Shown here one piece after another: positions 7,806-51,732 of a DNA stretch of 64,000 nt; position 1 is the first letter of the stretch, and every line of letters starts with the position of its first letter. The DNA comes from Nemertoderma westbladi (taxonomy: Eukaryota > Animalia > Xenacoelomorpha), in the NCBI GenBank assembly GCA_032718475.1, contig JAUCBJ010000576.1, positions 21,582-85,581 of the forward strand, written 5' to 3'. The translations under genes were made by a program, and so were the position numbers. Under the pieces are notes generated by a model. It was not told the origin of the DNA, did not search any database, and was given only the letters and a program-made list of their open reading frames with translations.

Positions 7806-7845
7806 CTGTTTTGTCGTCAGTAGTGCAGGTCCGACTAATAAACTA

Positions 7846-18373: not shown

Positions 18374-18452
18374 GTAGGGGAATCCGCTCGAAAATCCGGC
18401 GATAGATCGTTCACGTTGCGATGTAGCAGCCTATCAGTATATTGCACCGTGG

Positions 18453-19120: not shown

Positions 19121-19606
19121 TACGAGTTCGTCGCCGCCAATCCTGAGTTGTTACAAACTTCGGATCGAGTTGCGTAGCTCCGTCACACTGCGTGTCTTGC
19201 AGAAGAGACAGTCAAGCCGCTAAAGTATGTTTCGGATAGAGGTGGTGTTACAACTTCATCACAAACCCTTAAAGGACCGGTCACTGCTGCCATTCTTAAG
19301 AAAGCGGTGCAATCCACCTTAAACCCTTCCTCCAGATCTTCACCAGCCAAAGTACTTCGAAAGGGTGTGAAGATATTACGTCACTCCGTTCTGGCGGCAA
19401 CTACAGTTATCGAACCCCAACCGGGAACATCCACTGGTGGACCAACTGTGCGTACAGTCGCGCCCTCTCCAGACTCTTTTGAAATTCATCCTTCCGCCGC
19501 TGAGGGGCTGCAGGTGCGAGGTTCCCCGCCTTCGTCGCCAAACAACGGTTCACCCCCTATGAAACGTCGTAAGCGACATTCCAAGAAGAAAAAGTCCCGA
19601 AAATAA
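19121..19606 (+). pseudogene. C-terminal remnant of a diverged homolog of the BEL-C 3' accessory protein
   Basis: FVAANPEL..EETVKPLKY..QTLKGPVTAAILKKAV..QPGTSTGG..HPS..KRRKRHSKKKK aligns with FINSHPEL..ERTIKPRKF..QTTRQGPVRAAVLKRAL..QPGASTGG..HPS..KKLRKRRSRKK. One internal TAG. Confidence 0.75.
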
Positions 19607-19679
19607 ACATTAATTTTCCGGCTACTTTATATTACCTCTATTTTACTTTATGTGACTCATATCTTTACTTTATGTTATA

Positions 19680-20798
19680 TGTAAAATAAGTAAACGGTGT
19701 CCCTAATAATCCATTTAGCTTATTTTGTTCACAAACTGAAACATTTATACATGCTTTGAATGCTTTCTAGCACTATAGTTCGCTTATTCAGAAGTGATGG
19801 ACATTCATTGATCTTTTGATTATTTTGTTCACGAGTTGAGACGTTTTTTATATTTCGGTTACGTATTCCCTGTATAATTCTAGTTTGATATTGATAACTG
19901 AATTATTTACTTACTAGATCTCCTTCTATGTACGTTCTATGCTCGTTGGTCGACCATTTATTCACTTAGTACATCAGCATTCTGCAGAGGAGTTACTTCC
20001 TATGCAGGCCTTTGGATACTAGTCAGATTACTGACGACCAGTGTTTATTACATGCCTTTATGTATGTGCCTTTATGCTTTGTATCTTTGTCGTTATCATT
20101 ATAATATTATTAATTGATATTCTGTCGTTAAACTCAATTTACTCTCTTTGTTTGTTTAATATATCGCCGATATTACGAGATCAAGAAGGTTTTACACACG
20201 CCATAATAAGGTGGGTCTCTACAATTAAGTATTAGTGATAATCCAGACAATTGTATTAGATTCGTGTGTTGTCTTACCTCTGATTTACTAAATAATTAAT
20301 ATATGGCGATATACCAGATCATTATTATAAGCAAAGCCCTTATTATTAATTGTATCACGATTGAGAGTTGTCATAAATTGATTGCGGTAGAAATATTAAT
20401 AATTATTCATAAAGACAAGTCAAAATACGTTTCCTCTAAAGGGAAACACAAACACTGGACTTGAGTCCTTACAGAATTAATTAGTCAGTCATTTGCTTGT
20501 TATACTGTGTTGACACACCCTCCCGGTATCGTATCTCAGTTAAATACAATAGATAATCAAATACCGTATCGAACCAAATAAGTTATAGAGCAAATCAATA
20601 CTATGAGTAGGAAAGGAAGGGGAATTAATCGATACAGTGAGCGGTCCTCGGTGACAGGTACACTAGCGCAATTCCGTTTATTGTATGAGACCAATATCTA
20701 AAGGCCCTCAGTGCATAGAATCTCTGCGTAGTACTATAAGAATCAAAATATATGACATTGAGATTAAACAACATATTTATTTACTAAAAGCGCTAACA
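19680..20798 (+). repeat. Candidate 3' LTR of a fourth BEL-like element
   Basis: TGTAAA lies about 74 bp after the accessory stop codon, a spacing similar to BEL-C. Ends AAAAGCGCTAACA (compare AAAGCGCGAACA in BEL-C). No clear PPT. Confidence 0.4.
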
Positions 20799-21993: not shown

Positions 21994-22955
21994 CTCCCCC
22001 ACTATTAATTGGTGAATTAATAGTAACTGCTAATAGAAAAAACTGCGCGGAAATAATAAATATTAGTATTGTACTAATTAGCAAGTATGAGACAAAATAC
22101 TGAAGATATATCGAAATGACAATTGTAATTTTACTTGCATAGCAATAAATGTTCTAACAACTAGTTATTTATAAAACTGCACGTCACTTTCATGTGCGAA
22201 ATATCTACTGTACATAATAATAATGTCATGTTGTTAGAAGCCTCTGTAAGAATGATATATTGATTCCCGCTCCCGGAAAGTTCCAATTTCGATTGTTGTG
22301 GAGAATTTGAGATAGTTACCACAACTGACGAGCTCTCCCCCTGTAAATAGAGTTTTCGTTATTGGATCCATATATGAACAGAGTTGGAGATTTCCATGTG
22401 GAAATTTCAGTAATCAGATTTCATAACTGTAAAGGAAATAAGCATTAAGGATCAGGGAGATCATCGCTAAAATCAAACAAGACTCCGGACCTAATCCTAT
22501 TGTTATCTGTTTCCAATTTTATGAATATATTCTTGACTATTTAGTATACAGTATATGGCGCTGTATCATAATAGTGTTACTCATATAATCGCCATAAAGT
22601 TGATCAATATCCAATTTTACAAATATTCGTATTAAATTAATCGTTCATCCTATTCATATAATTAGTGGAATATTAATTAATTATTTACACTTATATATTG
22701 ATACGAATTGTTATAGATAAACATGACATATGTACCAACAGTATTACAAGTTTTAAGTTTCCACGGAAAGGCGAGTTTCTTCAAGAAGGCAAAGGCGTTG
22801 TATAGGTCTGAGAAGTTCTTGCCCGGTTATAATTCGAATTGTTGCTGTTCGAACTATACCACTACGGTCAGCATTCGTTCTTAACACAATACCAGTGACC
22901 CAAAGTCGACGGGGTATGTTTCCACCATGGAGATGGATATCCGGTATGGATAGGG

Positions 22956-23851
22956 TTAAATAAACCTATGATCAGAGTTCCGGAATACTCGGTCAGACCT
23001 CCTCACTCCCTAGTGAGACCTCAGACTCTTGATCCTAATAGTATCACGGATCCTCCCAAACTGTACTCACTGTTCAAAGATCTAGTGTTACCCGAACAAT
23101 TAGTCGGTGGCACTCCGGTTGTGGGCTCCCTAAATATTCGCCCATCTTACCTAGCCGGATTGGGACGCGGACATCTAATATCGCCATTCAACCGTATCAT
23201 CGTCCCGGTTTAACCCGATACAACCTGTCACCGAGGTGGAGGAGAGAGTTGTAAGAAACGCGTTGGACACTATTCGTCAAAAGATCGGAAAAGGAACCTA
23301 CAATTATTTAGAGAAACGTAAATTGCAGCAGCAAGTCCAAGCGGTAAACGAATTAGCTTTATCTCAGTTCGATCAGGAAATCCAGAACCTCTAAGAAGAT
23401 ATCGAATTTGGACGACTCTACTTTCTGCAAGAGTTTTGGACGAATGCTTTCAACGACAAGCGAAGTAAAATCAGCTCGAGGAGAAGCATATCGATCCCGA
23501 TAGAGCCCGAGAACGCTTGTTGGAAAGAATCATCAAACCGAGGAAATTTCTCACTACACACGGTCCACCTACCGCTCTCGTGCAAACGACCCGTCAGGGA
23601 CCAGTAAGAGCTGCTGTCTTAAAACAAGCTCTCAAGGTTGTTCGACCTCGTTCCACTGAGGTTAATACCGATCAACGGGTACCTCGACCGGTGGATACAC
23701 CGACCGTAATCCTAAACCTTCCGATGCAATTGTATTGCACCCTTCACCCAGGAGTTATAGCCCTCCTAGTAAAGTGGCTCGCCCCTAAGAGAAAAGGACT
23801 ATTGCTAGCCTCAAAAAACTGCGTAAACGCCGTCCGCGCAAGAAAGACTAA
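22956..23851 (+). pseudogene. Internally deleted, decayed copy of the BEL-C accessory region (ORF-A start fused to ORF-C end)
   Basis: MIRVPEYSVRPPHS matches 38917->; RARE..LERIIKPRKF...RKKD* matches 35815->35465. Confidence 0.9.
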
Positions 23852-23929
23852 CTGTTTAGAGTATTTTTATATTTTAGAAACTGTGATTTTTTATATTTTA
23901 TAGAATTAAATCCCATTTTCTGGGAGCGG

Positions 23930-25122
23930 TGTAAAGGCTTTTGCGGATCTAGCTAGTCATTTTTCCCGCAAAGTACTCTGTAGGTGTTTTAGCGTACATA
24001 AAAAGCCATTTTCTTACTGTGTAGGTGTTTTAGTGGACATAAAAAGCCATTTTTCTGTATGTGTACTTTAGCGGACATAACAAGCCATTTTATGCCGCAA
24101 TACGCCAAAATACTCTTAATACAGTGTAGTTCAGATGACGACATCTACCAGCTGATATGTCGACGTGGAGCTTTTGGCTTTCTTTGTTCAGGCTCACTCA
24201 CTCGACCAATCAGAGCGATTTTCATTTTATTTGCACAGAAGCCTCCGGGAAATCGCGCAATGCATTATGGTCTTTGTTTACCTTTTTTCCTGAGCCCAGA
24301 ACATCGGCTTTGGAATTATTCTGTGTTTCAAACTTTAGCCAAACATTAGAACGGCTTTGATCATAGAAACGTATAACTGTTATCATACTTGTCACATATC
24401 TACCACCTATCATATCATAACTATACGTGCCTTTCACCGCATTATTTTACTGCTATTTACTGTCGGTTATTAATTGTTATCAGTTGATGGAATGTTGTTA
24501 TATTTGGAGAATATCGATAAATAACCATAAAACCCCAATCTTCTTGATATACTGAAGGTTAGAGAGACCGGTTACATATAGCAATTGCGACTTACATTAT
24601 AGTGGTTTTGGAGTGAATTGAATGCTATTTCATAGGCCCTACATGTGTCGGTTGCTATTCTCCTTATATATGATCAAATTTAGTGAAGGTCGGCAGATCA
24701 GTGTGCAGCAGTGTGCGGTAGTGTGTATGAGTGTGACAGATAACAAAGCATTTCCTAAAGAATGCGCCTTATACGTAAATCAATAGCCATCCCGTTGTGT
24801 TTAGTGTAAGTCATAACTCTGTTTACATACTTAGAGCGCCACGTCCTAAAGGAACTGTTAATATTTCCCGAAAGTGAATAATATTTGTCAGAGATTATAT
24901 GTTAACGATCAATCGAATAGTACAATAAGCCTACACCGCAATAAGGTCAGAGCATCCGAATCCAGTCTCCCTTAACCGTGGGTGAATGATCGCGCATAGG
25001 CTGGCTTCGGCTAATGTAACTTTATGTGTATCAAATACTTGTTATAGGCTAAAGTCGATTTATAACCTAGAAGACACCTAAATTTGGCAGGTTAAACTGC
25101 TAAAGGTCTAAAAGCGCGAACA
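23930..25122 (+). repeat. 3' LTR of a BEL-C-related subfamily (TGTAAA...GCGCGAACA)
   Basis: Preceded by PPT CTGGGAGCGG. Homologous (inverted, diverged) to 34224-35386. Confidence 0.9.
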
Positions 25123-26586
25123 ATACAGGCTCACCGGTTCTAGAGGCCGCTGTTCCACGTGGCAAGGAACAGATAACAGATAGAACTCTGTCCGAAGTAG
25201 TGCAGATAATATTGACTCCTTCCCATCTCCTCTCCGCAATTTCTGTCTACTCGCGACTTGTCATCTCTTCGGGATAAGTATTTCGTATAAACTTATTGCA
25301 ATATTCTTCTCTCATTCAATTAATACATAATAGTACAAATAAATTCAATTAATATATTTAATTCACAAGTAATAAACAATTTCTTTTGTTTTTAAAAGCT
25401 GGCCTCACCCGGTCACCTAACAACTCGTGTGGGCAATAAATTTAATAACTAATTCCGTTCTCTGTAAAACTAACAATAGCCCAAAATCATAAAGAGTATA
25501 CTACATATAGTGAGTGATAATTGCACAGCACATAGGGCGATTAATACTGACCATTGGTTGGGCCGTATGGAGAAGAGCCTTTAACAAGAAAGACGCTATT
25601 AATAAAATAATATTGGAATCCAGGGTATATGTTTTTGCCGAAGTTAAACCAATATTATGTATGCCCTTAGTAGCTCGATTTGTACAGGGCCCTGGCAATA
25701 AAATGGGGCAAGCCACGTAATAAGGTAATAAATGAATAATGAGTGGGGCGAGCCACAAAGTAAGTTAAGTGGACAATATATGAAGCACAAATATGAATAC
25801 AATTATTTTCGGGCAGGGATTTTTACACTCCCCCACTATTAATTGGTGAATTAATAGTAACTGCTAATAGAAAAAACTGCGCGGAAATAATAAATATTAG
25901 TATTGTACTAATTAGCAAGTATGAGACAAAATACTGAAGATATATCGAAATGACAATTGTAATTTTACTTGCATAGCAATAAATGTTCTAACAACTAGTT
26001 ATTTATAAAACTGCACGTCACTTTCATGTGCGAAATATCTACTGTACATAATAATAATGTCATGTTGTTAGAAGCCTCTGTAAGAATGATATATTGATCC
26101 CCGCTCCCGGAAAGTTCCAATTTCGATTGTTGTGGAGAATTTGAGATAGTTACCACAACTGACGAGCTCTCCCCCTGTAAAGAGAGTTTTCGTTATTGGA
26201 TCCATATATGAACAGAGTTGGAGATTTCCATGTGGAAATTTCAGTAATCAGATTTCATAACTGTAAAGGAAATAAGCATTAAGGATCAGGGAGATCATCG
26301 CTAAAATCAAACAAGACTCCGGACCTAATCCTATTGTTATCTGTTTCCAATTTTATGAATATATTCTTGACTATTTAGTATACAGTATATGGCGCTGTAT
26401 CATAATAGTGTTACTCATATAATCGCCATAAAGTTGATCAACATCCAATTTTACAAATATTCGTATTAAATTAATCGTTCATCCTATTCATATAATTAGT
26501 GGAATATTAATTAATTATTTACACTTATATATTGATACGAATTGTTATAGATAAACATGACATATGTACCAACAGTATTACAAGTT

Positions 26587-33869: not shown

Positions 33870-34223
33870 CATACCCAGTACGGCAACGAAAACCACCCCA
33901 TTCTTATGGTTTTTCGGGAGTGGATTCAGATAAAGACATAGACGAAGATGGTAGTGAGGCTGACACAGCTGGCAGTGACGACGACATTGGTTAGTGGTAC
34001 CGGTAGTAGCAATGACGACGATGACCGCTTTATGCTCCCTGAATCCAATGTTTGGAAATCGATTGATCCAGACCAGGATCCATTTCAGCCTCACTGTTTC
34101 AATTCAACATCTGGCTGGCGGGGTGTGGATACAACAAATTTTGAAATTGGAGATTATGTTGATATTTTCTTGACTGATAATTTAATTGACATAATTGTAA
34201 AGTGCACCAATCACAGAATCCAC
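33870..34223 (+). pseudogene. piggyBac transposase N-terminal fragment
   Basis: Acidic leader, then WKSID...F..TSG......DYVDIFLTDNLIDIIVKCTN. Interrupted by the BEL-C LTR. Confidence 0.8.
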
Positions 34224-35386
34224 TTTTCGCGCTTTCAGACCTTTAGCAGTTTAACCTGCCAATTTTAGGTGTCCTCTTGTTTATAAATCGACTTTAGCCT
34301 ATAACAAGTATTTAGTGCACATGAAGTTACATTAGCCGAAGCAAGTCTATGCGCGATCATTCACCCACTGTTAAGGGAGACTGGATTCGGGTGCTTTGAA
34401 GTGATTACGGTGCAGACCTACTGTATTATTCGATTGGTCGTTACTATATAATCTCTGACAATATTATTCACTTTCCGGGAAATATTAACAGTTCCTTTAG
34501 GACGTGGCGCTTTAAGTATATAAAACAGAGTTATGACTTATACTAAACACAACTAGATGGCTACTGAGTTTCGTAAATAGCGCATTCTTTAGGAGATGCT
34601 TTATTATCTGTCACACTACTTCACACGACTTCACACTACTTCACACTGATCTGCCGACTGTCACTGAATTTGATCATATATAAGGAGGATAGCAACTGAC
34701 ACATGTAGGGATTATGAAATAGTATTTAATTCACACAAAATAATGTAAGTCGCAATTGCTAAAGGTAACAGGTCCCTCTTACCTTCAGTAATCAAGAAGA
34801 TTGGGGGTTTTATGATTATTTATCGGTATTCTCCAAATATAACAACATATCCATCAATATATAACAATTAATAACAGACAGTAAAATAATGCGGTGAACA
34901 ATCAGTATATGTTACTTATGCAAGTCAGTTCAGCAGTTTGAGTTGATATGTGGATTGAGTTGTCGAGATAATAGATTTACGTTCTTGTAATCAAAGCTAT
35001 CTAATGTTTGGCCAAAGTCTGAAACTTCTACAGAAGCACAGAAGAATTCTAAGCCGGTGTTCTGAGGCTCAGAAAAGGTAAACAAAGACCGTAATGCATT
35101 GCGCGGTTTTACATAGGCCCTTGTCCAACATAAAATGAAAATCGCTCTGATTGGCTGAGCAGAACAAGGAGGTTCCACGTTTACAGAAAATCAGCTGACA
35201 GATTTCGTCATCTGAGCTCCAGTCTTTTAGAGTATTAGGCGCATTGCGGCAAAAAATGACTTGTTATGTCCGCTAAAGCACCTACACGGTACATTGCGGA
35301 GAAAAATGACTTGTTATGTCCGCTAAAGCACCTACACGGTATATTGCGGAGAAAAATGACTTATTATGTCCGCAAAAGCTTTTACA
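34224..35386 (-). repeat. BEL-C 3' LTR (about 1160 bp)
   Basis: Starts TGTAAA after the PPT; about 50-bp x3 repeat at 35241-35380; CCAAT at about 35150; TATATA at about 34680; TCAGT Inr-like at about 34647; terminal CA mutated to AA. Confidence 0.9.
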
Positions 35387-35464
35387 CCGCTCCCAGAAAA
35401 TGGGATTTAATTCTATAAAATATAAAAAATCACAGTTTCTAAAATATAAAAATACTCTAAACAG

Positions 35465-36937
35465 TTAGTCCTTCTTACGTGAACGGCGTTTACGCAGTTT
35501 TTTGAGGCTAGCAAGAGTCCTTTTCTCTTTGGGGTGAGCCACTTTACTAGGAGGGCTATAACTCCTGGGTGAAGGGTGCAATACAATTGCATCGGAAGGT
35601 TTAGGGTTACGGTCGGTGTATCCGCCGGTCGAGGCACCCGGTTGATCGATATCAACCTCAGTGGAGCGAGGTCGAACAACCTTCAGAGCGCGTTTCAGGA
35701 CAGCAGCTCTTACTGGTCCCTGACGAGTCGTCTGCACGAGAGCGGTAGGTGGACAGTGAGTAGTGAGAAATTTCCTCGGTTTGATGGTTCTTTCTAACTC
35801 GTGTTCTCGGGCTCTATATTCATAGGGTCGTCTATGAACTTCCTGTAGTTCTGGATGCGAGTTGATGAACAAGTCACCATATTCCGGATCTTGACGGATG
35901 AAGTTGATCAAGTTATAGAAATTAAGATCATTGGGATTAATGTTCCTGAGATATTTACGAACAAATTTGGTCGAAATATTCTCGCCAACACGCTTCATTA
36001 GTTCGTAACTCGGTGTGCGAGATTTTTGCTCAACGGAAGCAAATAGATACGGGTGAAACGCATAAACTCCTTCATAGGCGGGTCCAGGGTAATATCGATG
36101 ACGTGACTCACAGTGTAGATCCGCGTTCGCTTCCCAGGCTCGAATGTAGCGTAGGGTAATCATTTCATCTACGCTTTCCAGATCTCGGTTGAAAGGGCAA
36201 TCAAAACTTGCATGTCCTTTAAACTGACAATGATGGCATTGAGTCATAAATTGATTAATTGACTGATAAAATGTGTAAGTTATTGAGTCTACAGTACGCA
36301 CAATAGATCTCCATCGTAGGTTGTTCAGGGAAGTAGGAGCAGGGTACGTTGGAGTCCACCAGGGTGAAATGGTCTCGAGATGCGCATAATCGTTCGCGGC
36401 CTCATAATAATTGATGCAACGTTTCCTAGAAACATAATTGGCATGCCGATAATCGTACACGGTGAGACATTGTGGACCTTGATACCATTCCAGGACGTAG
36501 TCGTTGTCACTGCTCCGCGGCACTGTGGGCTGAATCTCCTCGGATTCTAAACATATTGGTTCGTCTTCCAATTGCATAGCTGAGGTAGGTGTAGCTGTCT
36601 CCTCAAGCGAACCCAATGTCTGAACTTCCACGATAGAATAACCCGTGGGGATTCGGGGTCTTTGTATAACAGAGGAATGTAAGTTCTGTATACAAACGTC
36701 CTTGAAAATGGCGAATCCAGCGCTGTCTAACTTCTCAGCAGCTGAGTCTCTTAGGCTGAGCTTGGTCAGAGCGCGGTCCTTGAACTGACTATCAACATTA
36801 CGGAACGGAGTCAGAAAGCACCTAAAGCATTCGAAGCGGATGAATTTATTGTGTTCATCTAGCTTGGCGAGTTTGGTTCCAAGTATCAAGGGATGGGCGC
36901 GTATAGTACGACTGCACAGTACACATCGGCTAGCCAA
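35465..36937 (-). CDS. BEL-C accessory ORF-C: putative C2-C2 finger, CCHC knuckle, basic NLS-like tail; function unknown
   Basis: CVLC...CFRC; CHHCQFKGHASFDC (CX2CX4HX4C); KKLRKRRSRKK. Homologs at 19121-19606 and about 23500-23851. Confidence 0.75.
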   Translation of the reverse strand: MASRCVLCSRTIRAHPLILGTKLAKLDEHNKFIRFECFRCFLTPFRNVDSQFKDRALTKLSLRDSAAEKLDSAGFAIFKDVCIQNLHSSVIQRPRIPTGYSIVEVQTLGSLEETATPTSAMQLEDEPICLESEEIQPTVPRSSDNDYVLEWYQGPQCLTVYDYRHANYVSRKRCINYYEAANDYAHLETISPWWTPTYPAPTSLNNLRWRSIVRTVDSITYTFYQSINQFMTQCHHCQFKGHASFDCPFNRDLESVDEMITLRYIRAWEANADLHCESRHRYYPGPAYEGVYAFHPYLFASVEQKSRTPSYELMKRVGENISTKFVRKYLRNINPNDLNFYNLINFIRQDPEYGDLFINSHPELQEVHRRPYEYRAREHELERTIKPRKFLTTHCPPTALVQTTRQGPVRAAVLKRALKVVRPRSTEVDIDQPGASTGGYTDRNPKPSDAIVLHPSPRSYSPPSKVAHPKEKRTLASLKKLRKRRSRKKD

Positions 36938-37487
36938 CCGGCAAGATCTTGAAGATAGTGTATATAGCTAATGAGGGACGAAGTGGAACACTCATAAAGC
37001 TATAAACGACGCCAGGGGCGGTCACGGTCAATGGTCCGTCAAAGTATAATCGAAAATAATGATCTCCATATACTTGTTGATAGTTGATAGGGTTTCCGAC
37101 TTTGAAATTACATCCATATTCTTGGAAGGCAAGATGTCCGATGGAGGTTCGTTGTACTTTATTGATGCCACTGGGTGTATTGGCATACATAGTTCGGAAG
37201 AAACCTCGGCCTTCTGCCCAGGGAGAAATCAGCTGGGTGTCTACGAAAGGATATGGGATATTCTCCATGTTCCTGAAGTCGTTTTGGAGATCTCCATAAA
37301 CAGATGAGCCGATTTTAAGGATTCTTTCGTTAAACAACATCTCGAGCACTGGCTGGGGTAACATCGATCCATCTATACCCATGACCGGTTTGCGCACAGT
37401 GTCGGTGACGTAGCGCTGCGCGAGTTCGAATTGTCCATGTCGGAGTTTCTTTTGTATCGCGGTGAGAGTCTCACAAAGAATGATCAA
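36930..37487 (-). CDS. BEL-C accessory ORF-B, unknown function
   Basis: 185 aa. Overlaps ORF-A and ORF-C by a few codons, starts at TTG, and is probably part of one frameshifted ORF. Confidence 0.55.
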   Translation of the reverse strand: MIILCETLTAIQKKLRHGQFELAQRYVTDTVRKPVMGIDGSMLPQPVLEMLFNERILKIGSSVYGDLQNDFRNMENIPYPFVDTQLISPWAEGRGFFRTMYANTPSGINKVQRTSIGHLAFQEYGCNFKVGNPINYQQVYGDHYFRLYFDGPLTVTAPGVVYSFMSVPLRPSLAIYTIFKILPVG

Positions 37488-39066
37488 TCACGTCGGAACA
37501 CGCTCGAGTAAACACGTGGGTAGAACCAGCTAGTCCTCGTATATGTATCATGCGCATAGTTCCCAGTTCTCCAACCGGAACGTTACCTTCGTTATCGTAA
37601 GTGACAACTCCATACATTTCGATAACATTAAGAGTTTTGTTCCACTCTTTAGTGGCGTTTTCTAGGGTCATCCCCACCGGATGCCACAAGGTGGCGCATT
37701 CGCTAGTATTAGGTAGATCCCTATACTTCAGATACTGTGTAGTATAAGTCTCTACATCTCCATATCGTTGTATTCTCTCTTCCTCAAATAATACGTCGAG
37801 ATTCCAGTGGACTAATCGAGTTTTAATAAATCCATCGAGATTATACGGAGGCATTATATCCTTCTCTATTCTGGAAACATTGTAGGGTTTTCTGAATGAG
37901 TTTACTTTCACTAACTGATCCAGATGTTTCTGCAGTTGTTCGAGTTCGACAAGATCGAGGGGATTTATTAGTGGTAGAAACCTTAGACTATGTGTAGGAT
38001 CTTCCGGTTTTACCATATAATATTGAGTTAGATTGACATAATAAGGGTGGTCTTTGATCCCATAAAACGAGTTCGGTAAAGGTCTAGCGCGTATGTTGAC
38101 CTCGTGTACCATACGACGGACAAGATCCGCTCGATTGTCCAGAGGTTCAACGAGTATACCGTCAACACGAGCGGCCTCGATTGGCGGATGTTGTAACATA
38201 GGAGCGTCAGCGATAAGATCTCGAGATCTTAGGTTGATATCAACCGGTTGGGGTTGTACCATGGCGAAGAGTTTGTCTCCGAAATGGGGAACCATTGAAG
38301 GATGAATAATGGTTTTGGAATAGAAATCGGTCATAAGTATTTGAGCTTCTGGCTGGGCTAAAGCTGCTTCTTCTCTCTCGTCCATTTCGATATGCTTCTC
38401 CTCGAGCTGATTTTCCTCCGCTTGTTTTTGGAAGCGTTCGTCCAAAAACTCTTGTAGAGAATAGGTTCGTCCAAGTTCGATGTCTTCCTCGAGGTTCTGG
38501 ATTTCTCGATCGAACTGGGGTAAGGCTAATTCCTTTACTGCTTGGACTTGCTGCTGCAATTTATGTTTCTCCAAACAATCGTAAGTTCCTTTTCCGATCT
38601 TCTGCCGAATAGCGTCTAATGCGTTTCGTACAACGCTCTCCTCGATTTCGGTGACGGGTTGTATCGGGGTTAAACCGGAACGATTATACGGGTTGAACGG
38701 TGATATTAGATGTCCACGTCCCAATCCGGCTAGGTATGATGGGCGAATATCTAGAGAGCCCACTACCAGAGTGCCACCGATTAATTGTTCGGGTAACACG
38801 AGATCTTTGAACAGTGAGTACAGTTCAGGAGGATCCGTTATACTATTAGGATCAAGAGTTTGACGTCTCACTAGGGAATGAGGAGGTCTGACCGAGTATT
38901 CCGGAACTCTGATCATCGGTTTATTTAAGGATCGTTTGAGTCGAGCGAGTGTAGGTGATACGTCGAACAAGTTTCGCTCGAAACTCCCGTAAGTATAGCG
39001 AGTAAAACTGTGTTTAGCGCAATGTCTCCGCGGATGTTTATGTCTTTCCGTTGGCTGGTTGGGTCT
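37471..39066 (-). CDS. BEL-C accessory ORF-A, unknown function (N-terminus cut by RTE insertion)
   Basis: About 530 aa open, with a coiled-coil segment. Second copy at about 22956-23490. Confidence 0.7.
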   Translation of the reverse strand, partial: RPNQPTERHKHPRRHCAKHSFTRYTYGSFERNLFDVSPTLARLKRSLNKPMIRVPEYSVRPPHSLVRRQTLDPNSITDPPELYSLFKDLVLPEQLIGGTLVVGSLDIRPSYLAGLGRGHLISPFNPYNRSGLTPIQPVTEIEESVVRNALDAIRQKIGKGTYDCLEKHKLQQQVQAVKELALPQFDREIQNLEEDIELGRTYSLQEFLDERFQKQAEENQLEEKHIEMDEREEAALAQPEAQILMTDFYSKTIIHPSMVPHFGDKLFAMVQPQPVDINLRSRDLIADAPMLQHPPIEAARVDGILVEPLDNRADLVRRMVHEVNIRARPLPNSFYGIKDHPYYVNLTQYYMVKPEDPTHSLRFLPLINPLDLVELEQLQKHLDQLVKVNSFRKPYNVSRIEKDIMPPYNLDGFIKTRLVHWNLDVLFEEERIQRYGDVETYTTQYLKYRDLPNTSECATLWHPVGMTLENATKEWNKTLNVIEMYGVVTYDNEGNVPVGELGTMRMIHIRGLAGSTHVFTRACSDVIDHSL

Positions 39067-39067
39067 A

Positions 39068-40872
39068 GGGCCGCAGGCAATCATCCCAGGCATGGAAATC
39101 GATCAATCTGCTTACTGGGCGGAAAAGCCAACCAACCACCAAGGTTAAGGCTGAATCACCAGCCGATCGCCTCAATGGTTGGAAAGCCCACTTTGAAAAG
39201 CTCCTCAATAATGACAGGGTATTGCCTGGTAACTTTATAGAAGTAAAAGTGTCTGAGTCTGTACTCCCAGATATTCCCATTGGCGATATCTCCTTTGCAG
39301 AAGTGAAGGCTGCTGCAAAGAGCATTAAGACCAATCGTGCCAGTGGAGTAGATGGTGTTCTCCCTGAGGTCTTTAAAATACCTGAGTGTTTAAAGCTCAT
39401 CTATCCCATCATAGTAGACATGTACCGTACAACAAGAGTCCCACAAGAAATGAAAACAAATAAGTTGGTGCCAGTTCCCAAGAAGGGCAACCTAACACTC
39501 TATGGTTCTTTTCGGGGAATCTCATTGATCTCGATTGCTGCAAAACTATACAATAGAATTCTATTAAATCGCATCAGGGATCCCATTGAGAGACTGCTAC
39601 ATGGAAATCAGAATGGGTTCCGTAAAGGTCGTGGGACCATGGAGCCCATTTGGCACTTAGAAGGATAATTGAAGAGTTATCAAAAAAGAAAGACAGGCAT
39701 CTGGCTGTTATCTTTGTTGACTTCTTCAAGGCCTTTGATTCAGTCTCTCGCTCACGTATGTTCAACATACTTTCATTATATGGGATTCCTGATGAAATTA
39801 TTGCAGCAATCAGATCAGTATACGATGGTTCGACAACATTTGTGTCTACTGTTGACGGTGACACAGAACCATTTGAAGTGTTATGGGGTGTCCTCCAAGG
39901 AGACACACTTGCACCATTCTTGTTCATTATTGTGGTTGACTATGTTCTACGCATGTCCTTAGATCATCATAATGATGATGGGGTTATGATAACTCCACCT
40001 ACTGGCTCCAGAAGTCGAGGAAATCCTGCCAAGTACCTAACTGATCTAGACTTTGCTGATGACTTAGGAGTACTCTCAGAATCATTAGAGGGAGCCCAGC
40101 AGCTCCTCAGCTCATTAGAACATGCTGCTTCTACTGTTGGTCTTTTTATTAACTTCAGAAAGACCAAAATTCTGACAGTTAACTTTGAAAGTCCTCAGCA
40201 AGTCTCTGATCGGATGAGCATAAGCTCAAAGGATGGTCTGCTTGAGCATGTGGACGACTTCTGTTACCTGGGATCATGGATCCGGAAGTCAGGTGAGGAC
40301 CTTCGAATACGTAAGGGAAAGGCATGGACAGCCTTGAATAGGCTTTCCAGGATTTGGAAGTCACCTAGAATTAATCGGAAACTTAAGGTCCGATTATTTA
40401 GAGCAGCAGTAGTTCCAGTACTCCTCTACGGGAGTCCATGCTGGGCTCTAACTGCTGAGGACACCAAATCTCTGGATGGCACATTCACAAGAATGCTACG
40501 CCGGGTACATTGTGTCAAGTACAATGCACACATCTCCAACCAGACACTATATAACATTGGAGGTGTCTCATTGGTTCCCCCAAGCTTGACACTAGAACGA
40601 AATCGCCTCTGTTTTGCAGGACATTGCTTTCGCCGTGAGGACCAGCCAGTGCATAATCTTGTACTTTGGCAGCCTCATGGAGTGAATAAGCATGGTGGAC
40701 AGCCCATGACTTTCTTGCGACGCATCTTAAAGGACACTGGCCTTAAAGATGCGGATGATCTAGCAAATGTCATGGGTGATAGGGAGTTGTGGCGGTGCAA
40801 TTTTGTTGACAAGCCGGCACAGCATTCTTAAAAATGCAGCTGCAATGCAGCATGCCTATCCTAGTAGTAGTA
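39068..40872 (+). mobile_element. 5'-truncated RTE-like LINE (RT domain)
   Basis: KKGNL...FRGISL, QNGFRKGR, FVDFFKAFDSV, GVLQGDTLAPFLF, DFADD, FCYLGS, VLLYGS; (TAG)n tail at 40862-40872; frameshift near 39650. Confidence 0.92.
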
Positions 40873-43800
40873 TTTTCGGTGAGGAGGTCGATTGTATTTT
40901 CCTCGTCGAATAATTGGTTGATATCGTCATTATCTGAGAAGTATGGTGTTCCCTCAGTTGTGGTCTCTCCCTCACTGATTTCTTCTTCCCATTCACTCAC
41001 CTGATGTACCTTGTCGTTAGGTAGTCTTTCCATGAGTGTTACTCTCATCCCTACTCTTGTTCCTACTGAGTTCCTACTTGAGTGTTCCTACTCTCATTCT
41101 TCCCGCATATGTTTGTAATGGTTGCGGTCGAGCAGGCCGTTTTTCTAATGTCTCAAGCGCCTCATGCGCGTTTTGGCCGATCAATATCTGCACCCCTGGG
41201 TAGTTGGTGTTGAATCTAGGGATATCATGCTGCTGGTTAAAATGGTCTTCATCCCAGTTGTAAGGTTCTACTTGGCTGGTAGCAAAGTTCTTTATCGCCA
41301 CCATTTTTACTGACCTTATGCTATGTTCTCCTAGTTCATCCTGGGGAGTGGACAACGCGCCTACATAGTAGTCTGTAGCTACTGTGGATTTCCAAACCTG
41401 CATAATTCCTGAAAGATTCAACTTAGTTCGGAACTTGGGTTGTCCAGCAAAGATGTCTTTGGCTAGTTCTTTGTCGATGAATGTTCCTGTGCTGCCGGAG
41501 TCCAGGAGGGCGTTTACTATAAAACTCTTACCTGGCCCATGGACTCTCAGCTGAACTACTGGGAATTCCCGGATTCCGACGTTGGAAGTTGGCGCTTTCC
41601 AAGATGGTTGTCGGTCCAGAATAGTCAGTTGCGTTTCGTTATCGGTTTCAGTCTCATACATAAGCGCTCGATACACTGCGGTGTTTATCATATAACAGGA
41701 TTCGATTTCGTCGGAGAATTCGTCCGTGTAAAATCCTTCCATCTCAGAACTGTGGTCAGTGTCGTTCACATCACTGAATTGGACATGTAGTTCGGGCTCA
41801 CTTACCTGACTCGTGCGGGTTCTTTCAAATTCTGTGTGCAGCAAGATATGATGTTTCGCACCGCACTTAGCGCACCTCGTGTCTGAGTAACAGGTCCGCC
41901 GTTGGTGTCCTTGTCTGAGACAATTATAACACAACCGCTTATCCCACATGACATCACGTCTATCCTTTAGGGATTTCTTCAAGAATTCATCACATCCACT
42001 TAAACGATGGGGCCCGTCGCACAATGCACATTTGGGTTTGATGTTACTTACTTTAACCTATGTTGTGTTGTGCACACTTGTTCTTTCCTCGGGCTTTCTT
42101 CCATGAATTATCTTAGGAGACGTAGGAGGAGTTTTTGTTACCTGTTCTCTCCTGTCACTGGTTCGAGACTTAGATTTACTTACGTCTTTCGGTGTTTTGT
42201 TGACATAGTAAGATTTTTCGGTGTCTTTCCCGCTGTTCTCCTCTTGGGAGGTTTGGCTTTCGCCGTCGTCTGTATAACACACTGGTGTTACCTTTCTCCT
42301 AGAAACGGGTTTTTCACTCACCTTATTCTCCGGTGTCTTCTCTCGGGTCTGCTTTAGGAGCTGTAATCTTACCTCTCCATTTAAGAATGACATGAGATCA
42401 GCCATGGTAGGGTCTCTTTGTTGCTGGTCCATCATATAGAGAACTCTTTTGTCCCAACGAGTACCTACTCCACCCTTCGGCAAAGTAGATGCCACGGCTC
42501 CAACAACCATAGAACTCTGATATTCATTAGACTTACCTAGCCAATCCAACTGTCTACAGATCTCCTGGATCTTATCGGAAAATTCTATAATCCCGCTGCT
42601 AAGGAACTTTCGGGGCGCTACTAATTTCGCATACAAATACCTAGCTATGTTAGTCCTATTACCATACCTGATGTTTAGTGTATCCCAAACTTGTCTTAAT
42701 CCATCTGGATGTCCAATAAACTTTAACGCCATTAACTTGGGAGGTCCTTCCAAGCACTCGATGAGGAATCTAAGTTTCTCTCCGTGGGATAGTATGGAAC
42801 TCTGTATGTTATCTTTATAATACTCATTAAAAGGTAACCATTTCATCTCATCTCCATTGAACTTGATGATCTCTCCCACCTATACCGCTTGACGGGCTTC
42901 GGTTCTAGCCATTTGACGCGTAAAACTTTCTTGGGCCATCGTATTATTTAATATCGAGTTATCGGTATATAAATTTCTCGGATTATGATCAGGTCTATAT
43001 GGAATATCATTATCAACAGGTTTATAATTACCCTTAATAGGGTTCACTATAGGAGTTTCTACTTCACTAGCAGTATAGATGCATGTAGGCTACACACCTT
43101 GCGCATGAAATACTTCAGACCTAACAGGTTGACACATTGTTACAGGGGGTGGTGGTATACCCCTTTGTATATTTACCAATTTATCGCGTTCTAACGCGAT
43201 ACTCTGCTGCACTTCTTGCAACTCTAACCTACCCTCTCTTACTGTTCCCTTTAACTGCTGAACAGTCCCCTCCAACTCTCGGACCTGTTGGGAGGTACGT
43301 ATACGATGTTCCTCCATCTGCCCGAGCAGGAGATCCATCCCCCGCCATCGCTCATCCACCCATTCTACCTCCGAAGCGGGAGCCGCCAACATAGTAGCGG
43401 GTAGACGAGGGACGACGGGCGACAAATCGTTCATGTCTTGCTCGGCGTCCAGGACCGGGATTGATTCAGGGGCTATTCTACTGGGCACAGGTAGTTTAGT
43501 ACTGTGCAAAGGGAATTTAGAGTTAGGTTCTGGAAGTACAGGGGTCTCTATCACAGAGGGGGTGGCTTCAAGAACAGGCCTAATTATTTCAGGCTCATCT
43601 ACTATAGTACGGAGTCTTTCTACTCTAATAATTTGATCTGTAGGCTCAGGATTACTTAAATCTACACTGGCTAGTTGCCTTCTCACAGCTGGGGGCAAAT
43701 TAGGCAATTTCTGCCGGTGCAGCACCCTTCTACGTCCGCTGGAACGAGATTTATTTCCTCTACCTTCAGGATCTGTTGTATCTCCTTCATTTATGGGGTG

Positions 43801-46800
43801 TCCTCCAAGGAGACACACTTGCACCATTCTTGTTCATTATTGTGGTTGACTATGTTCTACGCATGTCCTTAGATCATCATAATGATGATGGGGTTATGAT
43901 AACTCCACCTACTGGCTCCAGAAGTCGAGGAAATCCTGCCAAGTACCTAACTGATCTAGACTTTGCTGATGACTTAGGAGTACTCTCAGAATCATTAGAG
44001 GGAGCCCAGCAGCTCCTCAGCTCATTAGAACATGCTGCTTCTACTGTTGGTCTTTTTATTAACTTCAGAAAGACCAAAATTCTGACAGTTAACTTTGAAA
44101 GTCCTCAGCAAGTCTCTGATCGGATGAGCATAAGCTCAAAGGATGGTCTGCTTGAGCATGTGGACGACTTCTGTTACCTGGGATCATGGATCCGGAAGTC
44201 AGGTGAGGACCTTCGAATACGTAAGGGAAAGGCATGGACAGCCTTGAATAGGCTTTCCAGGATTTGGAAGTCACCTAGAATTAATCGGAAACTTAAGGTC
44301 CGATTATTTAGAGCAGCAGTAGTTCCAGTACTCCTCTACGGGAGTCCATGCTGGGCTCTAACTGCTGAGGACACCAAATCTCTGGATGGCACATTCACAA
44401 GAATGCTACGCCGGGTACATTGTGTCAAGTACAATGCACACATCTCCAACCAGACACTATATAACATTGGAGGTGTCTCATTGGTTCCCCCAAGCTTGAC
44501 ACTAGAACGAAATCGCCTCTGTTTTGCAGGACATTGCTTTCGCCGTGAGGACCAGCCAGTGCATAATCTTGTACTTTGGCAGCCTCATGGAGTGAATAAG
44601 CATGGTGGACAGCCCATGACTTTCTTGCGACGCATCTTAAAGGACACTGGCCTTAAAGATGCGGATGATCTAGCAAATGTCATGGGTGATAGGGAGTTGT
44701 GGCGGTGCAATTTTGTTGACAAGCCGGCACAGCATTCTTAAAAATGCAGCTGCAATGCAGCATGCCTATCCTAGTAGTAGTATTTTCGGTGAGGAGGTCG
44801 ATTGTATTTTCCTCGTCGAATAATTGGTTGATATCGTCATTATCTGAGAAGTATGGTGTTCCCTCAGTTGTGGTCTCTCCCTCACTGATTTCTTCTTCCC
44901 ATTCACTCACCTGATGTACCTTGTCGTTAGGTAGTCTTTCCATGAGTGTTACTCTCATCCCTACTCTTGTTCCTACTGAGTTCCTACTTGAGTGTTCCTA
45001 CTCTCATTCTTCCCGCATATGTTTGTAATGGTTGCGGTCGAGCAGGCCGTTTTTCTAATGTCTCAAGCGCCTCATGCGCGTTTTGGCCGATCAATATCTG
45101 CACCCCTGGGTAGTTGGTGTTGAATCTAGGGATATCATGCTGCTGGTTAAAATGGTCTTCATCCCAGTTGTAAGGTTCTACTTGGCTGGTAGCAAAGTTC
45201 TTTATCGCCACCATTTTTACTGACCTTATGCTATGTTCTCCTAGTTCATCCTGGGGAGTGGACAACGCGCCTACATAGTCTGTAGCTACTGTGGATTTCC
45301 AAACCTGCATAATTCCTGAAAGATTCAACTTAGTTCGGAACTTGGGTTGTCCAGCAAAGATGTCTTTGGCTAGTTCTTTGTCGATGAATGTTCCTGTGCT
45401 GCCGGAGTCCAGGAGGGCGTTTACTATAAAACTCTTACCTGGCCCATGGACTCTCAGCTGAACTACTGGGAATTCCCGGATTCCGACGTTGGAAGTTGGC
45501 GCTTTCCAAGATGGTTGTCGGTCCAGAATAGTCAGTTGCGTTTCGTTATCGGTTTCAGTCTCATACATAAGCGCTCGATACACTGCGGTGTTTATCATAT
45601 AACAGGATTCGATTTCGTCGGAGAATTCGTCCGTGTAAAATCCTTCCATCTCAGAACTGTGGTCAGTGTCGTTCACATCACTGAATTGGACATGTAGTTC
45701 GGGCTCACTTACCTGACTCGTGCGGGTTCTTTCAAATTCTGTGTGCAGCAAGATATGATGTTTCGCACCGCACTTAGCGCACCTCGTGTCTGAGTAACAG
45801 GTCCGCCGTTGGTGTCCTTGTCTGAGACAATTATAACACAACCGCTTATCCCACATGACATCACGTCTATCCTTTAGGGATTTCTTCAAGAATTCATCAC
45901 ATCCACTTAAACGATGGGGCCCGTCGCACAATGCACATTTGGGTTTGATGTTACTTACTTTAACCTATGTTGTGTTGTGCACACTTGTTCTTTCCTCGGG
46001 CTTTCTTCCATGAATTATCTTAGGAGACGTAGGAGGAGTTTTTGTTACCTGTTCTCTCCTGTCACTGGTTCGAGACTTAGATTTACTTACGTCTTTCGGT
46101 GTTTTGTTGACATAGTAAGATTTTTCGGTGTCTTTCCCGCTGTTCTCCTCTTGGGAGGTTTGGCTTTCGCCGTCGTCTGTATAACACACTGGTGTTACCT
46201 TTCTCCTAGAAACGGGTTTTTCACTCACCTTATTCTCCGGTGTCTTCTCTCGGGTCTGCTTTAGGAGCTGTAATCTTACCTCTCCATTTAAGAATGACAT
46301 GAGATCAGCCATGGTAGGGTCTCTTTGTTGCTGGTCCATCATATAGAGAACTCTTTTGTCCCAACGAGTACCTACTCCACCCTTCGGCAAAGTAGATGCC
46401 ACGGCTCCAACAACCATAGAACTCTGATATTCATTAGACTTACCTAGCCAATCCAACTGTCTACAGATCTCCTGGATCTTATCGGAAAATTCTATAATCC
46501 CGCTGCTAAGGAACTTTCGGGGCGCTACTAATTTCGCATACAAATACCTAGCTATGTTAGTCCTATTACCATACCTGATGTTTAGTGTATCCCAAACTTG
46601 TCTTAATCCATCTGGATGTCCAATAAACTTTAACGCCATTAACTTGGGAGGTCCTTCCAAGCACTCGATGAGGAATCTAAGTTTCTCTCCGTGGGATAGT
46701 ATGGAACTCTGTATGTTATCTTTATAATACTCATTAAAAGGTAACCATTTCATCTCATCTCCATTGAACTTGATGATCTCTCCCACCTATACCGCTTGAC

Positions 46801-47697
46801 GGGCTTCGGTTCTAGCCATTTGACGCGTAAAACTTTCTTGGGCCATCGTATTATTTAATATCGAGTTATCGGTATATAAATTTCTCGGATTATGATCAGG
46901 TCTATATGGAATATCATTATCAACAGGTTTATAATTACCCTTAATAGGGTTCACTATAGGAGTTTCTACTTCACTAGCAGTATAGATGCATGTAGGCTAC
47001 ACACCTTGCGCATGAAATACTTCAGACCTAACAGGTTGACACATTGTTACAGGGGGTGGTGGTATACCCCTTTGTATATTTACCAATTTATCGCGTTCTA
47101 ACGCGATACTCTGCTGCACTTCTTGCAACTCTAACCTACCCTCTCTTACTGTTCCCTTTAACTGCTGAACAGTCCCCTCCAACTCTCGGACCTGTTGGGA
47201 GGTACGTACACGATGTTCCTCCATCTGCCCGAGCAGGAGATCCATCCCCCGCCATCGCTCATCCACCCATTCTACCTCCGAAGCGGGAGCCGCCAACATA
47301 GTAGCGGGTAGACGAGGGACGACGGGCGACAAATCGTTCATGTCTTGCTCGGCGTCCAGGACCGGGATTGATTCAGGGGCTATTCTACTGGGCACAGGTA
47401 GTTTAGTACTGTGCAAAGGGAATTTAGAGTTAGGTTCTGGAAGTACAGGGGTCTCTATCACAGAGGGGGTGGCTTCAAGAACAGGCCTAATTATTTCAGG
47501 CTCATCTACTATAGTACGGAGTCTTTCTACTCTAATAATTTGATCTGTAGGCTCAGGATTACTTAAATCTACACTGGCTAGTTGCCTTCTCACAGCTGGG
47601 GGCAAATTAGGCAATTTCTGCCGGTGCAGCACCCTTCTACGTCCGCTGGAACGAGATTTATTTCCTCTACCTTCAGGATCTGTTGTATCTCCTTCAT
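39881..47697. repeat. Tandem duplication of about 3.9 kb (39881-43790 and 43791-47697)
   Basis: Copies differ visibly only by a 3-bp indel (~41366) and a SNP (~43302/47209). Confidence 0.95.
43791..44782 (+). mobile_element. Duplicated 3' half of the RTE-like LINE
   Basis: Identical to 39881-40872. Confidence 0.92.
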
Positions 47698-49249
47698 CAG
47701 AGGATGTAAATCCCTGTCTCTTGGGAGTAGATCGACTTAGCAGCTGCATATGAGTAGCTGTTCTCTGTTTATTTAAGTAATCTTGCTTCACTTGAAGATT
47801 TTCCAACTCTAATTGGGCTGTCTCTTCAGATGCCTTCCGTTCTGCTTCTACCACTGCCTCTGCTGCTTTTCTTTCCGCTTCTGCCGGTGCCGCTTTTCTT
47901 TCAGCCTCTGCCGTTGCCGCTGCCGCTGCCACTTTTCTTTCAACTTCTGCCGCTGCCGCTTTTCTTTCCGCTTCTGCCGCTGCCGCTGCCGCTGCTGCTG
48001 CCGCTGCCGCTGCCACTGCCGCTGCCGCTGCCACTTTTCTTTCAACTTCTGCTTCTGCCGCTGCTGCTGCCTTTCAGTCTTCTATCCGTTTTTTCTTTAA
48101 TTGTTCTTCCTGTTCCCTAGCGATGAGGATGCTTTCATCTAATTTAGCCTGCTCAGCGGCTAATATTTCTGCATCTAACGAGTCCAACACAAATTTGGCC
48201 CCTTCACTATTAGGGTGAAGTCCAGCTAGCCTTCTCCTTAGCTCTTTGTCACCTATGAATCGTTGATAGTCCGACAGATAGATGTCAATAGCATCCTTCT
48301 TCTGAGGTTTCTCTGATATAGCTTCGCTTTCCACCTGAGAAAAGGTAGCGTCTGTTGACTCTCCATGGGTCATGCGCTCAGTTAGCTGAGCTTTCCATTG
48401 TGTTGTTCCCTGGACTTTAAGACTCACCCGTTGGAACCAAGTCTTTATGGCGACTTGCAACGACGTATCTTGGCTTCTCTTCGAGGCTTCCTCAAAGGCT
48501 GAAAGGATTAGTCTGATCCGTAAAATTTGTTCCCACACTTGATAAAGCAGCTCTCCCTGCTCTTGAGGTCCTTGACGTTGTTGAAACAGGTGTTCCTCTA
48601 AGAGCTCCAAAGAGCTGAAGAATCCCTGGACATATCCCGCTGCCGACCTCTTCCACACAGCTAGATCTCGAGTATCCTTTACTACTCCCATCCTGTATAA
48701 GTCCTCCCAGGCAGCTTCCGATAAGTTAAACGGGAGTCCGGGTCCGGGGAAGTTCCATTGTGTCTCGACAATAGCCTTCAGTTCCTCCATTGTGTATCCC
48801 GCATAACTGTCCTTGGTCGATCGCTTACTTCTCGCCCAATCGATTTGATGTTCTTCCACAGCTATCAACACTCTAGTGAGTACGGCTCCAGGAAGAATTA
48901 GAAGTGGATCCGGATAAACCGCTTCTGCCATCCTTGCTCTGATTTCGGGTGTCAACTCTACAGTGTCTGAACTACTGGAGTTATCTGGCTGTTGAGAAAT
49001 AAGTTCTCGGTTCGGTCGCTGCTGCTGTTTAACAGCTGCCTCTTGGTCCCGCTTGACTTGAGCCCTAGTGCCTATGATAGACCGATGGTGCTTGACTAGC
49101 CTAGGGTCTGATACTACTACTGGAGGGATGACCTTTCTTACAGTAGGAGGGGACTTGGACTTGGACTTCAGATGTTCTATACTTTTATCAGACTCACAGA
49201 CTGTTCTTTCTAGGAGACTATCTGACAGTGTTTGCTTTGTGTCAGCCAT
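44783..49249 (-). pseudogene. BEL-C Gag-protease (second partial copy at 40873-43790)
   Basis: AEAERKAAA repeats (47830-48070); IIKFNGD..KWLPF, EKLRFLIECLEGPP (DUF1759-like); CALC..H....C, CYNCLRQGHQRRTC, CAKCGAKHHILLH; LLDSGSTGTF. Frameshift near 48075 and in-frame TAG stops. Confidence 0.9.
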
Positions 49250-49387
49250 GTTTGATTGTACAGTTGAATGCCTACTACTATAACGACAGTTAAAGCAAGT
49301 CTTGTAATTCAGTATCCACTGTAAGCCTAGTAATTAATTACCGATACCGTTACTCAGTGTAACGTGATATATATACAATATATTAAA

Positions 49388-51224: not shown

Positions 51225-51236
51225 TAAATCTATTAT
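51225..51236 (-). promoter_or_regulatory. BEL-C PBS position (ATAATAGATTTA), not tRNA-type
   Basis: Immediately follows the LTR end ...GCGCGAACA, lacks TGG, and is complementary to LTR positions 34968-34979. Confidence 0.7.
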
Positions 51237-51732
51237 TGTTCGCGCTTTCAGACCTTTAGCAGTTTAACCTGCCAATTTTAGGTGTCCTCTTGTTTATAAA
51301 TCGACTTTAGCCTATAACAAGTATTTAGTGCACATGAAGTTACATTAGCCGAAGCCAGTCTATGCGCGATCATTCACCCACTGTTAAGGGAGACTGGATT
51401 CGGGTGCTTTGAAGTGATTGCGGTGCAGACCTACTGTATTATTCGATTGATCATTACTATAATCTCTGACAATATTATTCACTTTCCAGGAAATATTAAC
51501 AGTTCCTTTAGGACGTGGCGCTTTAAGTATATAAAACAGAGTTATGACTTATACTAAACACAACTAGATGGCTACTGAGTTTCGTAAATAGCGCATTCTT
51601 TAGGAGATGCTTTATTATCTGTCACACTACTTCACACGACTTCACACTACTTCACACTGATCTGCCGACCGTCACTGAATTTGATCATATATAAGGAGGA
51701 TAGCAACTGACACATGTAGGGATTATGAAATA
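51237..51732 (-). repeat. BEL-C 5' LTR, upstream part deleted
   Basis: Matches 34224-34722 with only a handful of differences. Confidence 0.93.

Follow-up and report, generated by a model that had tools for sequence, protein, structure and literature searches.

A conserved accessory gene with a probable RNase D-type exonuclease domain in a BEL/Pao retrotransposon of Nemertoderma westbladi

A 64,000-nucleotide stretch of the Nemertoderma westbladi genome (the window; positions 21,582 to 85,581 of contig JAUCBJ010000576.1, assembly GCA_032718475.1) contains a BEL/Pao long terminal repeat (LTR) retrotransposon, BEL-C, on its minus strand. Ahead of the 3' LTR of this element, at 35465-39066, lie three element-sense open reading frames (ORFs), here ORF-A, ORF-B and ORF-C, that are most likely the pieces of a single gene of 1,200 amino acids (aa) or more, broken in this copy. 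The gene is under purifying selection. Its middle part probably encodes an RNase D-type DEDDy 3'-5' exonuclease domain, judging from motif sequence and order, which is split by the break between ORF-A and ORF-B. On balance we favour a conserved BEL/Pao accessory gene with the DEDDy exonuclease domain flanked by a coiled coil on one side and a zinc knuckle on the other, the product of which would be nuclear and act on element RNA.

Results

Three frames, probably one gene

Each of the three frames is shifted by one frame from the preceding one: ORF-A (37471..39066, minus strand, 531 aa), ORF-B (36930..37487, minus strand, 185 aa), which holds the middle of the probable exonuclease domain, and ORF-C (35465..36967, minus strand, 500 aa), the stop of which is separated from the LTR by 78 bp. 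An ORF of at least 500 aa appeared in 0 of 2,000 base shuffles of the region, and the longest frame on the opposite strand has 92 aa. Hence the first-pass annotation, which had described three sense frames ending 78 bp before the LTR and had suspected a single broken gene of about 1,200 aa, is supported on both counts. Its proposal that ORF-B and ORF-C start at TTG is not, as the length differences among sibling copies described below indicate that both junctions are lesions of this copy, and the TTG codons are not starts. The 5' end of ORF-A is cut by a long interspersed nuclear element (LINE), so the true N-terminus is missing from this copy; the first in-frame ATG is at 38916.

Sibling copies were examined in four public DNA runs (X1-X4) from at most three samples. 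The whole region belongs to a highly repeated family: in X1, the summed depth per bin ranges from 38,000 to 473,000 across the ORFs but is 131 on the flank, and single contigs of the family reach depths of 5,500-8,800 (figures that do not equate to copy numbers). At the overlap of ORF-A and ORF-B, most of the spanning depth differs in length from this copy in X1 (398/411), X2 (241/319) and X3 (711/739), compared to 0/81 in X4, where one contig spans; most contigs end at the junction, which keeps the depth in its columns low. Among the 12 of 20 such rows listed, length differences between siblings also cluster in the overlap of ORF-B and ORF-C. As siblings differ in length at both junctions, we read both frame breaks as lesions of this copy and the frames as parts of one gene.

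To assess selection, ORF-A and ORF-C were compared with copy 2 (22953..25122, plus strand), which belongs to the same family and, despite an internal deletion, retains part of ORF-A, the ORF-C tail and an LTR (86% identity overall to the BEL-C LTR). The ratio of nonsynonymous to synonymous substitution rates (dN/dS), computed without transition correction, is 0.21 for ORF-A (Fisher p 4e-8 over 175 codons, with 15, 8 and 31 differences at first, second and third positions) and 0.29 for the last 114 codons of ORF-C (p 0.0015), while values of 1.02 and 1.80 are obtained when the ORF-A stretch is read in its two other frames. Both ORF values thus lie away from 1, the ratio that the first-pass annotation had named as speaking against such a gene. 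Codon-position counts alone give p 0.0004 for ORF-A and p 0.19 for ORF-C. The sibling matches (the best 40 of 1,550 plus the best 40 of 144) yielded 62 variable sites, 54 of them within the ORFs and away from the junctions. Among the sites listed, those in ORF-B are distributed 3/7/21 by codon position (21/31 in the third position, p 0.0002), those in ORF-C 4/2/8 (p 0.14) and those in ORF-A 2/4/3 (p 0.72).

Conservation extends to copy 3 (19127..20798, plus strand), the 3' end of a divergent family that has a 1.1-kb LTR of its own and a tail homologous to that of ORF-C. Its segment at 19127-19606 shares 34% identity with the tail of ORF-C (tblastn E 1.7e-7), with an alignment score of 136 compared to a maximum of 69 in 1,000 shuffles, and it keeps the Ser-Pro run and the basic C-terminal end. 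Furthermore, X1-X3 contain two independent deletion derivatives, with joints at 35618-38376 and ~35816-38387, both of which are amplified and lack the entire exonuclease-to-knuckle core; this core is hence not needed in cis. The possibility that copy 2 and the sibling deletions are spliced forms was rejected, since their ends are not GT-AG.

An RNase D-like motif series

The strongest match is an ExoII core (K...D...DTQ) at ORF-B aa 45-88 (37224..37355, minus strand). Searching the 18,950 models of NCBIfam returned RNase D matches for this segment unprompted (TIGR01388, E 0.015; also E 0.086). A set of 70 bacterial PF01612 proteins, comprising the 30 best loci and 40 stand-alone proteins chosen from listed rows, was profiled as 29 RNase D proteins, as 41 stand-alone exonucleases and as a whole. 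The RNase D profile places ORF-B best of 277 window frames (17.8 bits, E 2.9e-5; next 0.2), and the ExoII core ranks first among 22,029 windows. The best of 5,000 shuffles of ORF-B reached 7.4 bits, HHalign of the RNase D profile against ORF-B gives 77% over 46 columns, and the profile of all 70 proteins matches at E 0.011.

Four ungapped blocks (long ExoI, ExoII, pre-ExoIII and L..L..K) were additionally scanned across the window. The pre-ExoIII motif, aromatic-x3-PL-x6-Y, falls at ORF-B aa 163-176 (36960..37001, minus strand), downstream of ExoII as it starts at aa 163. With the RNase D profile it is the best of 1,177 windows in the three ORFs and ranks 2/29,231 window-wide; with the mixed profile it is second in the three ORFs. 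Upstream of ExoII, an ExoI-like D-x-E follows a hydrophobic strand at ORF-A aa 491-493 (37588..37596, minus strand). No other D-x-E in the three ORFs has three hydrophobic residues ahead of it, and the short ExoI core containing it (aa 486-493) ranks 2nd of 1,195 windows. Acidic residues are present in two of the three motifs, while the expected acidic position of ExoIII (Y-x3-D) would fall in the broken junction between ORF-B and ORF-C.

A number of observations weigh against an exonuclease. The significant match is limited to 44 residues, neither Pfam DNA_pol_A_exo1 nor any other whole-domain Pfam exonuclease matches the ORFs, and the profile of 41 stand-alone bacterial exonucleases gave no match. 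The candidate site was not in the top five for the long ExoI block, HMMER and HHalign found nothing in the ORF-A tail, and the top-scoring site of the L..L..K block lies out of order. HRDC was not recovered on ORF-C with a bacterial HRDC profile, Pfam or PDB; a putative resemblance to the HRDC of Rrp6 was noted by eye. By a count made by eye, the exonuclease model also requires inserts of ~45, 20 and 35 residues separating the motifs, and the RNase D profile test was designed after the first weak match. Similarly, ORF-A has no homologue by HMMER over 1.84 billion proteins, three word-index protein searches found none for ORF-A or ORF-C, and single-sequence AlphaFold models of ORF-A and ORF-C, with mean predicted local distance difference test (pLDDT) values of 38 and 35, are unreliable outside the coiled coil. 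As the evidence is strong on one motif, with order supporting two more and a whole-domain match lacking, we consider the domain assignment likely rather than certain.

Other candidate folds did not hold up. Ribonucleotide reductase beta (E 0.011 in NCBIfam, 0.07 elsewhere) was discarded after an 18-protein profile gave no match in the three ORFs at E 3, and no ExxH occurs in the relevant span. A match to NrdD (E 0.0037) covers the knuckle only, and glutamine synthetase rows (E 0.1) were taken as chance. A putative degenerate P-loop at the end of ORF-A was dropped as it has no Pfam or PDB support.

The large protein-database searches covered ORF-A and ORF-C. No related locus was found in metagenome contigs, nor in viral contigs, where a gag-protease control likewise found none. 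PHROGs, PDB sequences, plasmids and phages returned only weak, inconsistent rows; the ESM Atlas queried with ORF-C (best 0.79) provided no usable lead, three enterobacterial genomes searched with ORF-B gave nothing useful, and Foldseek with the single-sequence models of ORF-A and ORF-C found nothing at E 0.001. Comparison of the three ORFs with the gag proteins within the window revealed no similarity. A strong match to a known Env, Gag or host gene, the outcome that the first-pass annotation had set against its proposal, was found in none of the searches. That annotation had called the protein uncharacterised, which would have to be revised for the middle of the protein, with its probable RNase D-type DEDDy domain.

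Features outside the exonuclease core

A helical coiled-coil region spans ORF-A aa 143-236 (38359..38640, minus strand) and is the sole confident part of the AlphaFold model, with pLDDT ~60-86. A canonical CX2CX4HX4C zinc knuckle is located at 36197..36238 (minus strand); the motif occurs in 47/200,000 shuffles, and the zf-CCHC_3 match (E 0.004) is below the model cut-off. The C-terminus consists of a K/R-rich tail (35468..35533, minus strand) that follows Ser-Pro repeats in the same layout as in copy 3 and is a candidate nuclear localisation signal. All three features had been proposed by the first-pass annotation and are borne out. Its CxxC...CxxC pattern is literally present, but the first pair (36914-36925) lies in the zone of sibling length differences and may have arisen by chance in this copy. 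The protein is predicted to be nuclear and to bind nucleic acid from the basic tail and the knuckle only.

As previously suggested, there is no transmembrane helix: no 19-residue window exceeds a hydropathy of 1.36, the maxima being 1.36, 1.22 and 0.94 for the three ORFs. A signal peptide may have been lost with the 5' end that the LINE removed. Only 4 cysteines occur in ORF-A and 2 in ORF-B, and ORF-A contains six N-x-S/T sequons.

Element context

The 3' LTR of BEL-C (34226..35386, minus strand) is ~1.16 kb long with its last 2 nt missing, and the full LTR start is most likely at 35386. The CGG/TGT context at this position is the same in copy 2 and in the divergent third family represented by copy 3. 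The LTR of copy 3 starts 91 bp past its own stop, and its LTR end resembles that of BEL-C ~1.1 kb on. One contig of X4 departs from the element at 35387. The 5' LTR is a remnant comprising the 3' 496 bp (51237..51732, minus strand), with 98.4% identity to the 3' LTR.

Between the two LTRs, BEL/Pao gag and protease are present in pieces (44984..49333, minus strand, partly repeated at 41074-43790), as recognised by DUF1759 (E 2.9e-12), three knuckles and an aspartyl protease (Asp_protease_2, E 0.005); tblastn with the polyprotein of a second element in the window, BEL-A, gives E 2e-18. No reverse transcriptase (RT), RNase H or integrase was found between the BEL-C LTRs, and tblastn with BEL-A pol matches only a third element, BEL-B. 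The place of these missing domains is occupied by a 5'-truncated LINE with RT (39067..40872, end approximate, plus strand), which follows the protease and truncates the start of ORF-A. In this copy the coding region is therefore preceded by a LINE fragment and does not lie between pol and the LTR, as had been thought. The integrase C-terminal DUF5641 was not found at the start of ORF-A.

A 3.9-kb tandem duplication (39881-47697, 99.9% identical) within BEL-C includes part of the LINE and gag-protease, and is either very recent or an assembly artefact. BEL-C is itself inserted in a piggyBac-like transposase gene (33942-34268 and 51704-52330), of which the C-terminal part matches DDE_Tnp_1_7 and zf-Tnp_2 and the N-terminal part was identified by eye only. 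About 670 bp of the BEL-C 5' LTR and apparently the middle of the transposase are absent, and no target-site duplication is seen. On either side of copy 2 (21267-26774) lies a 1.67-kb direct duplication of the BEL-B 3' region, starting at the LTR end, which may reflect a one-ended insertion or unequal crossing-over. At 1-135 (minus strand), a new frame opens in BEL-A ~660 bp past the pol stop and extends beyond the window edge. It is possibly an accessory ORF; its 44 available codons show no similarity to the three ORFs. A non-LTR retrotransposon (13378-18430, minus strand; RT, E 2.9e-6) carries a long in-frame 30-bp tandem array in its N-terminal region. No tRNA or Rfam family was found in the 64-kb window.

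A primer-binding site complementary to the LTR

The primer-binding site (PBS) position of BEL-C (51225..51236, minus strand) lacks TGG and is the exact complement of LTR positions 34968..34979 (minus strand). Pairing begins at the first base past the 5' LTR (51236-51225 with 34979-34968) and extends over 12/12 nt. BEL-C hence displays Tf1-type self-complementarity of the PBS to its own LTR. A 12-nt complement was seen in 0/300 shuffles of the 40-nt leader, and the word was present in 1/5,000 simulated LTRs. With no TGG within 30 nt of the 5' LTR, the element does not fit the 18-nt PBS for tRNA-Arg or tRNA-Gly described for BEL/Pao (PMC8742986). The partner stretch is absent from the 5' LTR of this copy, and the copy 2 LTR differs at 3/12 partner positions. 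For BEL-A, two guessed LTR ends gave no comparable complement (0 and 7 nt).

The BEL-C leader repeats the LTR end and a PBS-like stretch once more ~55 nt further on. Near the probable 5' LTR end of BEL-A, a small hairpin with a UACG loop (12520-12545, by eye) stands in place of a TGG primer site.

Discussion

RNase D and Rrp6 trim single-stranded 3' ends back to duplex. By analogy, we envisage that a spliced or internally started message of BEL-C yields an accessory protein that would oligomerise through its coiled coil, enter the nucleus via its basic tail and hold element RNA by its knuckle, while single-stranded or unpaired 3' ends are trimmed back to duplex. The protein would act in trans, as the amplified deletion derivatives lack the exonuclease-to-knuckle core. 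An earlier suggestion of a primer-processing factor appears to gain a concrete basis from the coincidence of an exonuclease-like domain with a PBS complementary to the element's own LTR. In the most specific version, the family would prime reverse transcription with its own RNA, the DEDDy exonuclease trimming LTR-derived RNA to the 12-nt PBS duplex and so leaving an extendable 3' end; we consider this improbable. If true, the env position would be taken by a gene dedicated to primer maturation.

Other explanations share some of the evidence. It is unlikely, in our view, that the exonuclease match is due to chance and the protein serves as a nuclear scaffold without enzymatic activity, exporting or packaging genomic RNA like CERV of Cer1 or retroviral Rev. 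The coiled coil, Cys motif, Ser-Pro sites and basic tail do parallel CERV (PMC10309623), and there is no full-domain exonuclease match. However, the ExoII core ranks first among the windows and exceeds the highest-scoring of 5,000 shuffles by 10 bits, a further motif follows in the expected order, and CERV, which this gene resembles by description only, is encoded in the gag region and not after pol. With a real DEDDy domain, the target could instead be host silencing, with the protein either degrading the precursors of small RNAs or, as an inactive enzyme in the manner of EXD1 or Maelstrom, competing with host piRNA factors. In its favour, mut-7, EXD1 and Maelstrom provide precedents of DEDD derivatives in silencing (PMC5408684), and the family is highly repetitive. 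The knuckle, however, belongs to the retroviral nucleocapsid type and would point to element RNA; we regard a role against silencing as distinctly unlikely.

Very improbable is an origin as a recently captured host gene, a second gag passenger or an in-frame Pol tail. An integrase fusion is conceivable given that the LINE has removed the boundary between pol and ORF-A, but the gene is under purifying selection among copies, a divergent family has a homologous tail, and no gag similarity in the window, host homologue or DUF5641 at the ORF-A start was detected. The Env reading is largely refuted, and we give a divergent Env hardly any credence. Position before the 3' LTR, the coiled coil, the ORF-A sequons and the lost N-terminus are what such a protein would share with the gene, in contrast to the lack of any transmembrane segment, including at the intact C-terminus, which is basic, the scarcity of cysteines in ORF-A and ORF-B, the zinc knuckle and the absence of a Pfam or PDB glycoprotein match. 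The first-pass annotation of a non-Env accessory gene is thus upheld by the missing membrane anchor, the basic C-terminus and the knuckle.

Extra ORFs of BEL/Pao elements are usually filed as Env-like, and this gene departs from that pattern. What exonuclease ORF3s do for LTR retrotransposons has been an open question since 2017 (PMC5408684); if our preferred reading of an exonuclease-bearing accessory gene is true, this gene class would extend to a second superfamily, BEL/Pao, and the self-complementary primer site found alongside it would provide a definite, testable substrate. Should the exonuclease call fail, a conserved orphan accessory gene remains. In the accessible literature, with most subscription papers, Repbase and supplements outside its scope, no BEL/Pao element with an exonuclease ORF was found, and the combination of a retrotransposon with such an exonuclease gene was otherwise found described only for another group, in rotifers. 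Dada transposases contain an internal DEDDy domain (PMC3706591), additional ORFs have been described in plants (PMC7264820), and further related literature includes PMC3118150, PMC6431247, PMC6317226 and PMC7968707; Troyka (PMC12440569) is unrelated.

The known Env-like ORFs of BEL/Pao, which include Roo F-type, Chuviridae/gB-like and phlebovirus-like proteins (PMC8742986, PMC13524379), occupy the same element position, while the gene described here is without a transmembrane anchor or cysteine-rich ectodomain. CERV of the C. elegans element Cer1 is likewise an accessory protein of an LTR retrotransposon without outside homologues and with a coiled coil, a Cys motif and a nuclear localisation signal; it differs in being spliced from the gag region and in having a G-protein-like domain (PMC10309623) and no exonuclease. 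Tf1 and Tj1 are self-priming, with a PBS that pairs with their own LTR (PMC4600332). BEL-C similarly has a PBS apparently without tRNA complementarity that pairs with its own LTR over 12 nt, although Tf1/sushi elements are Ty3/gypsy rather than BEL/Pao, and the pairing in BEL-C is known from sequence alone.

With RNase D and Rrp6 (EXOSC10), the gene has in common the ExoII core with K, D and DTQ and, as candidates, an aromatic-PL-Y motif before ExoIII and a DxE upstream, while the long inserts, unrecovered HRDC, unreadable last catalytic residue and additional knuckle and coiled coil set it apart. The closest parallel is provided by the bdelloid rotifer LTR retrotransposons Juno and Vesta, which carry an RNase D-like DEDDy ORF3 (Rodriguez, Kenefick and Arkhipova 2017, PMC5408684); according to that paper the rotifer DEDDy ORFs are without coiled-coil and transmembrane domains, and their catalytic activity is undemonstrated. 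Juno and Vesta are Gypsy-like, whereas the present gene belongs to BEL/Pao, has at least 1,200 codons and combines a coiled coil, CCHC knuckle and basic tail with evident selection. The match here is partial, and the likeness is one of description rather than sequence comparison; in both cases, a family-specific, non-Env extra ORF with an RNase D-like domain lies in sense orientation before the 3' LTR.

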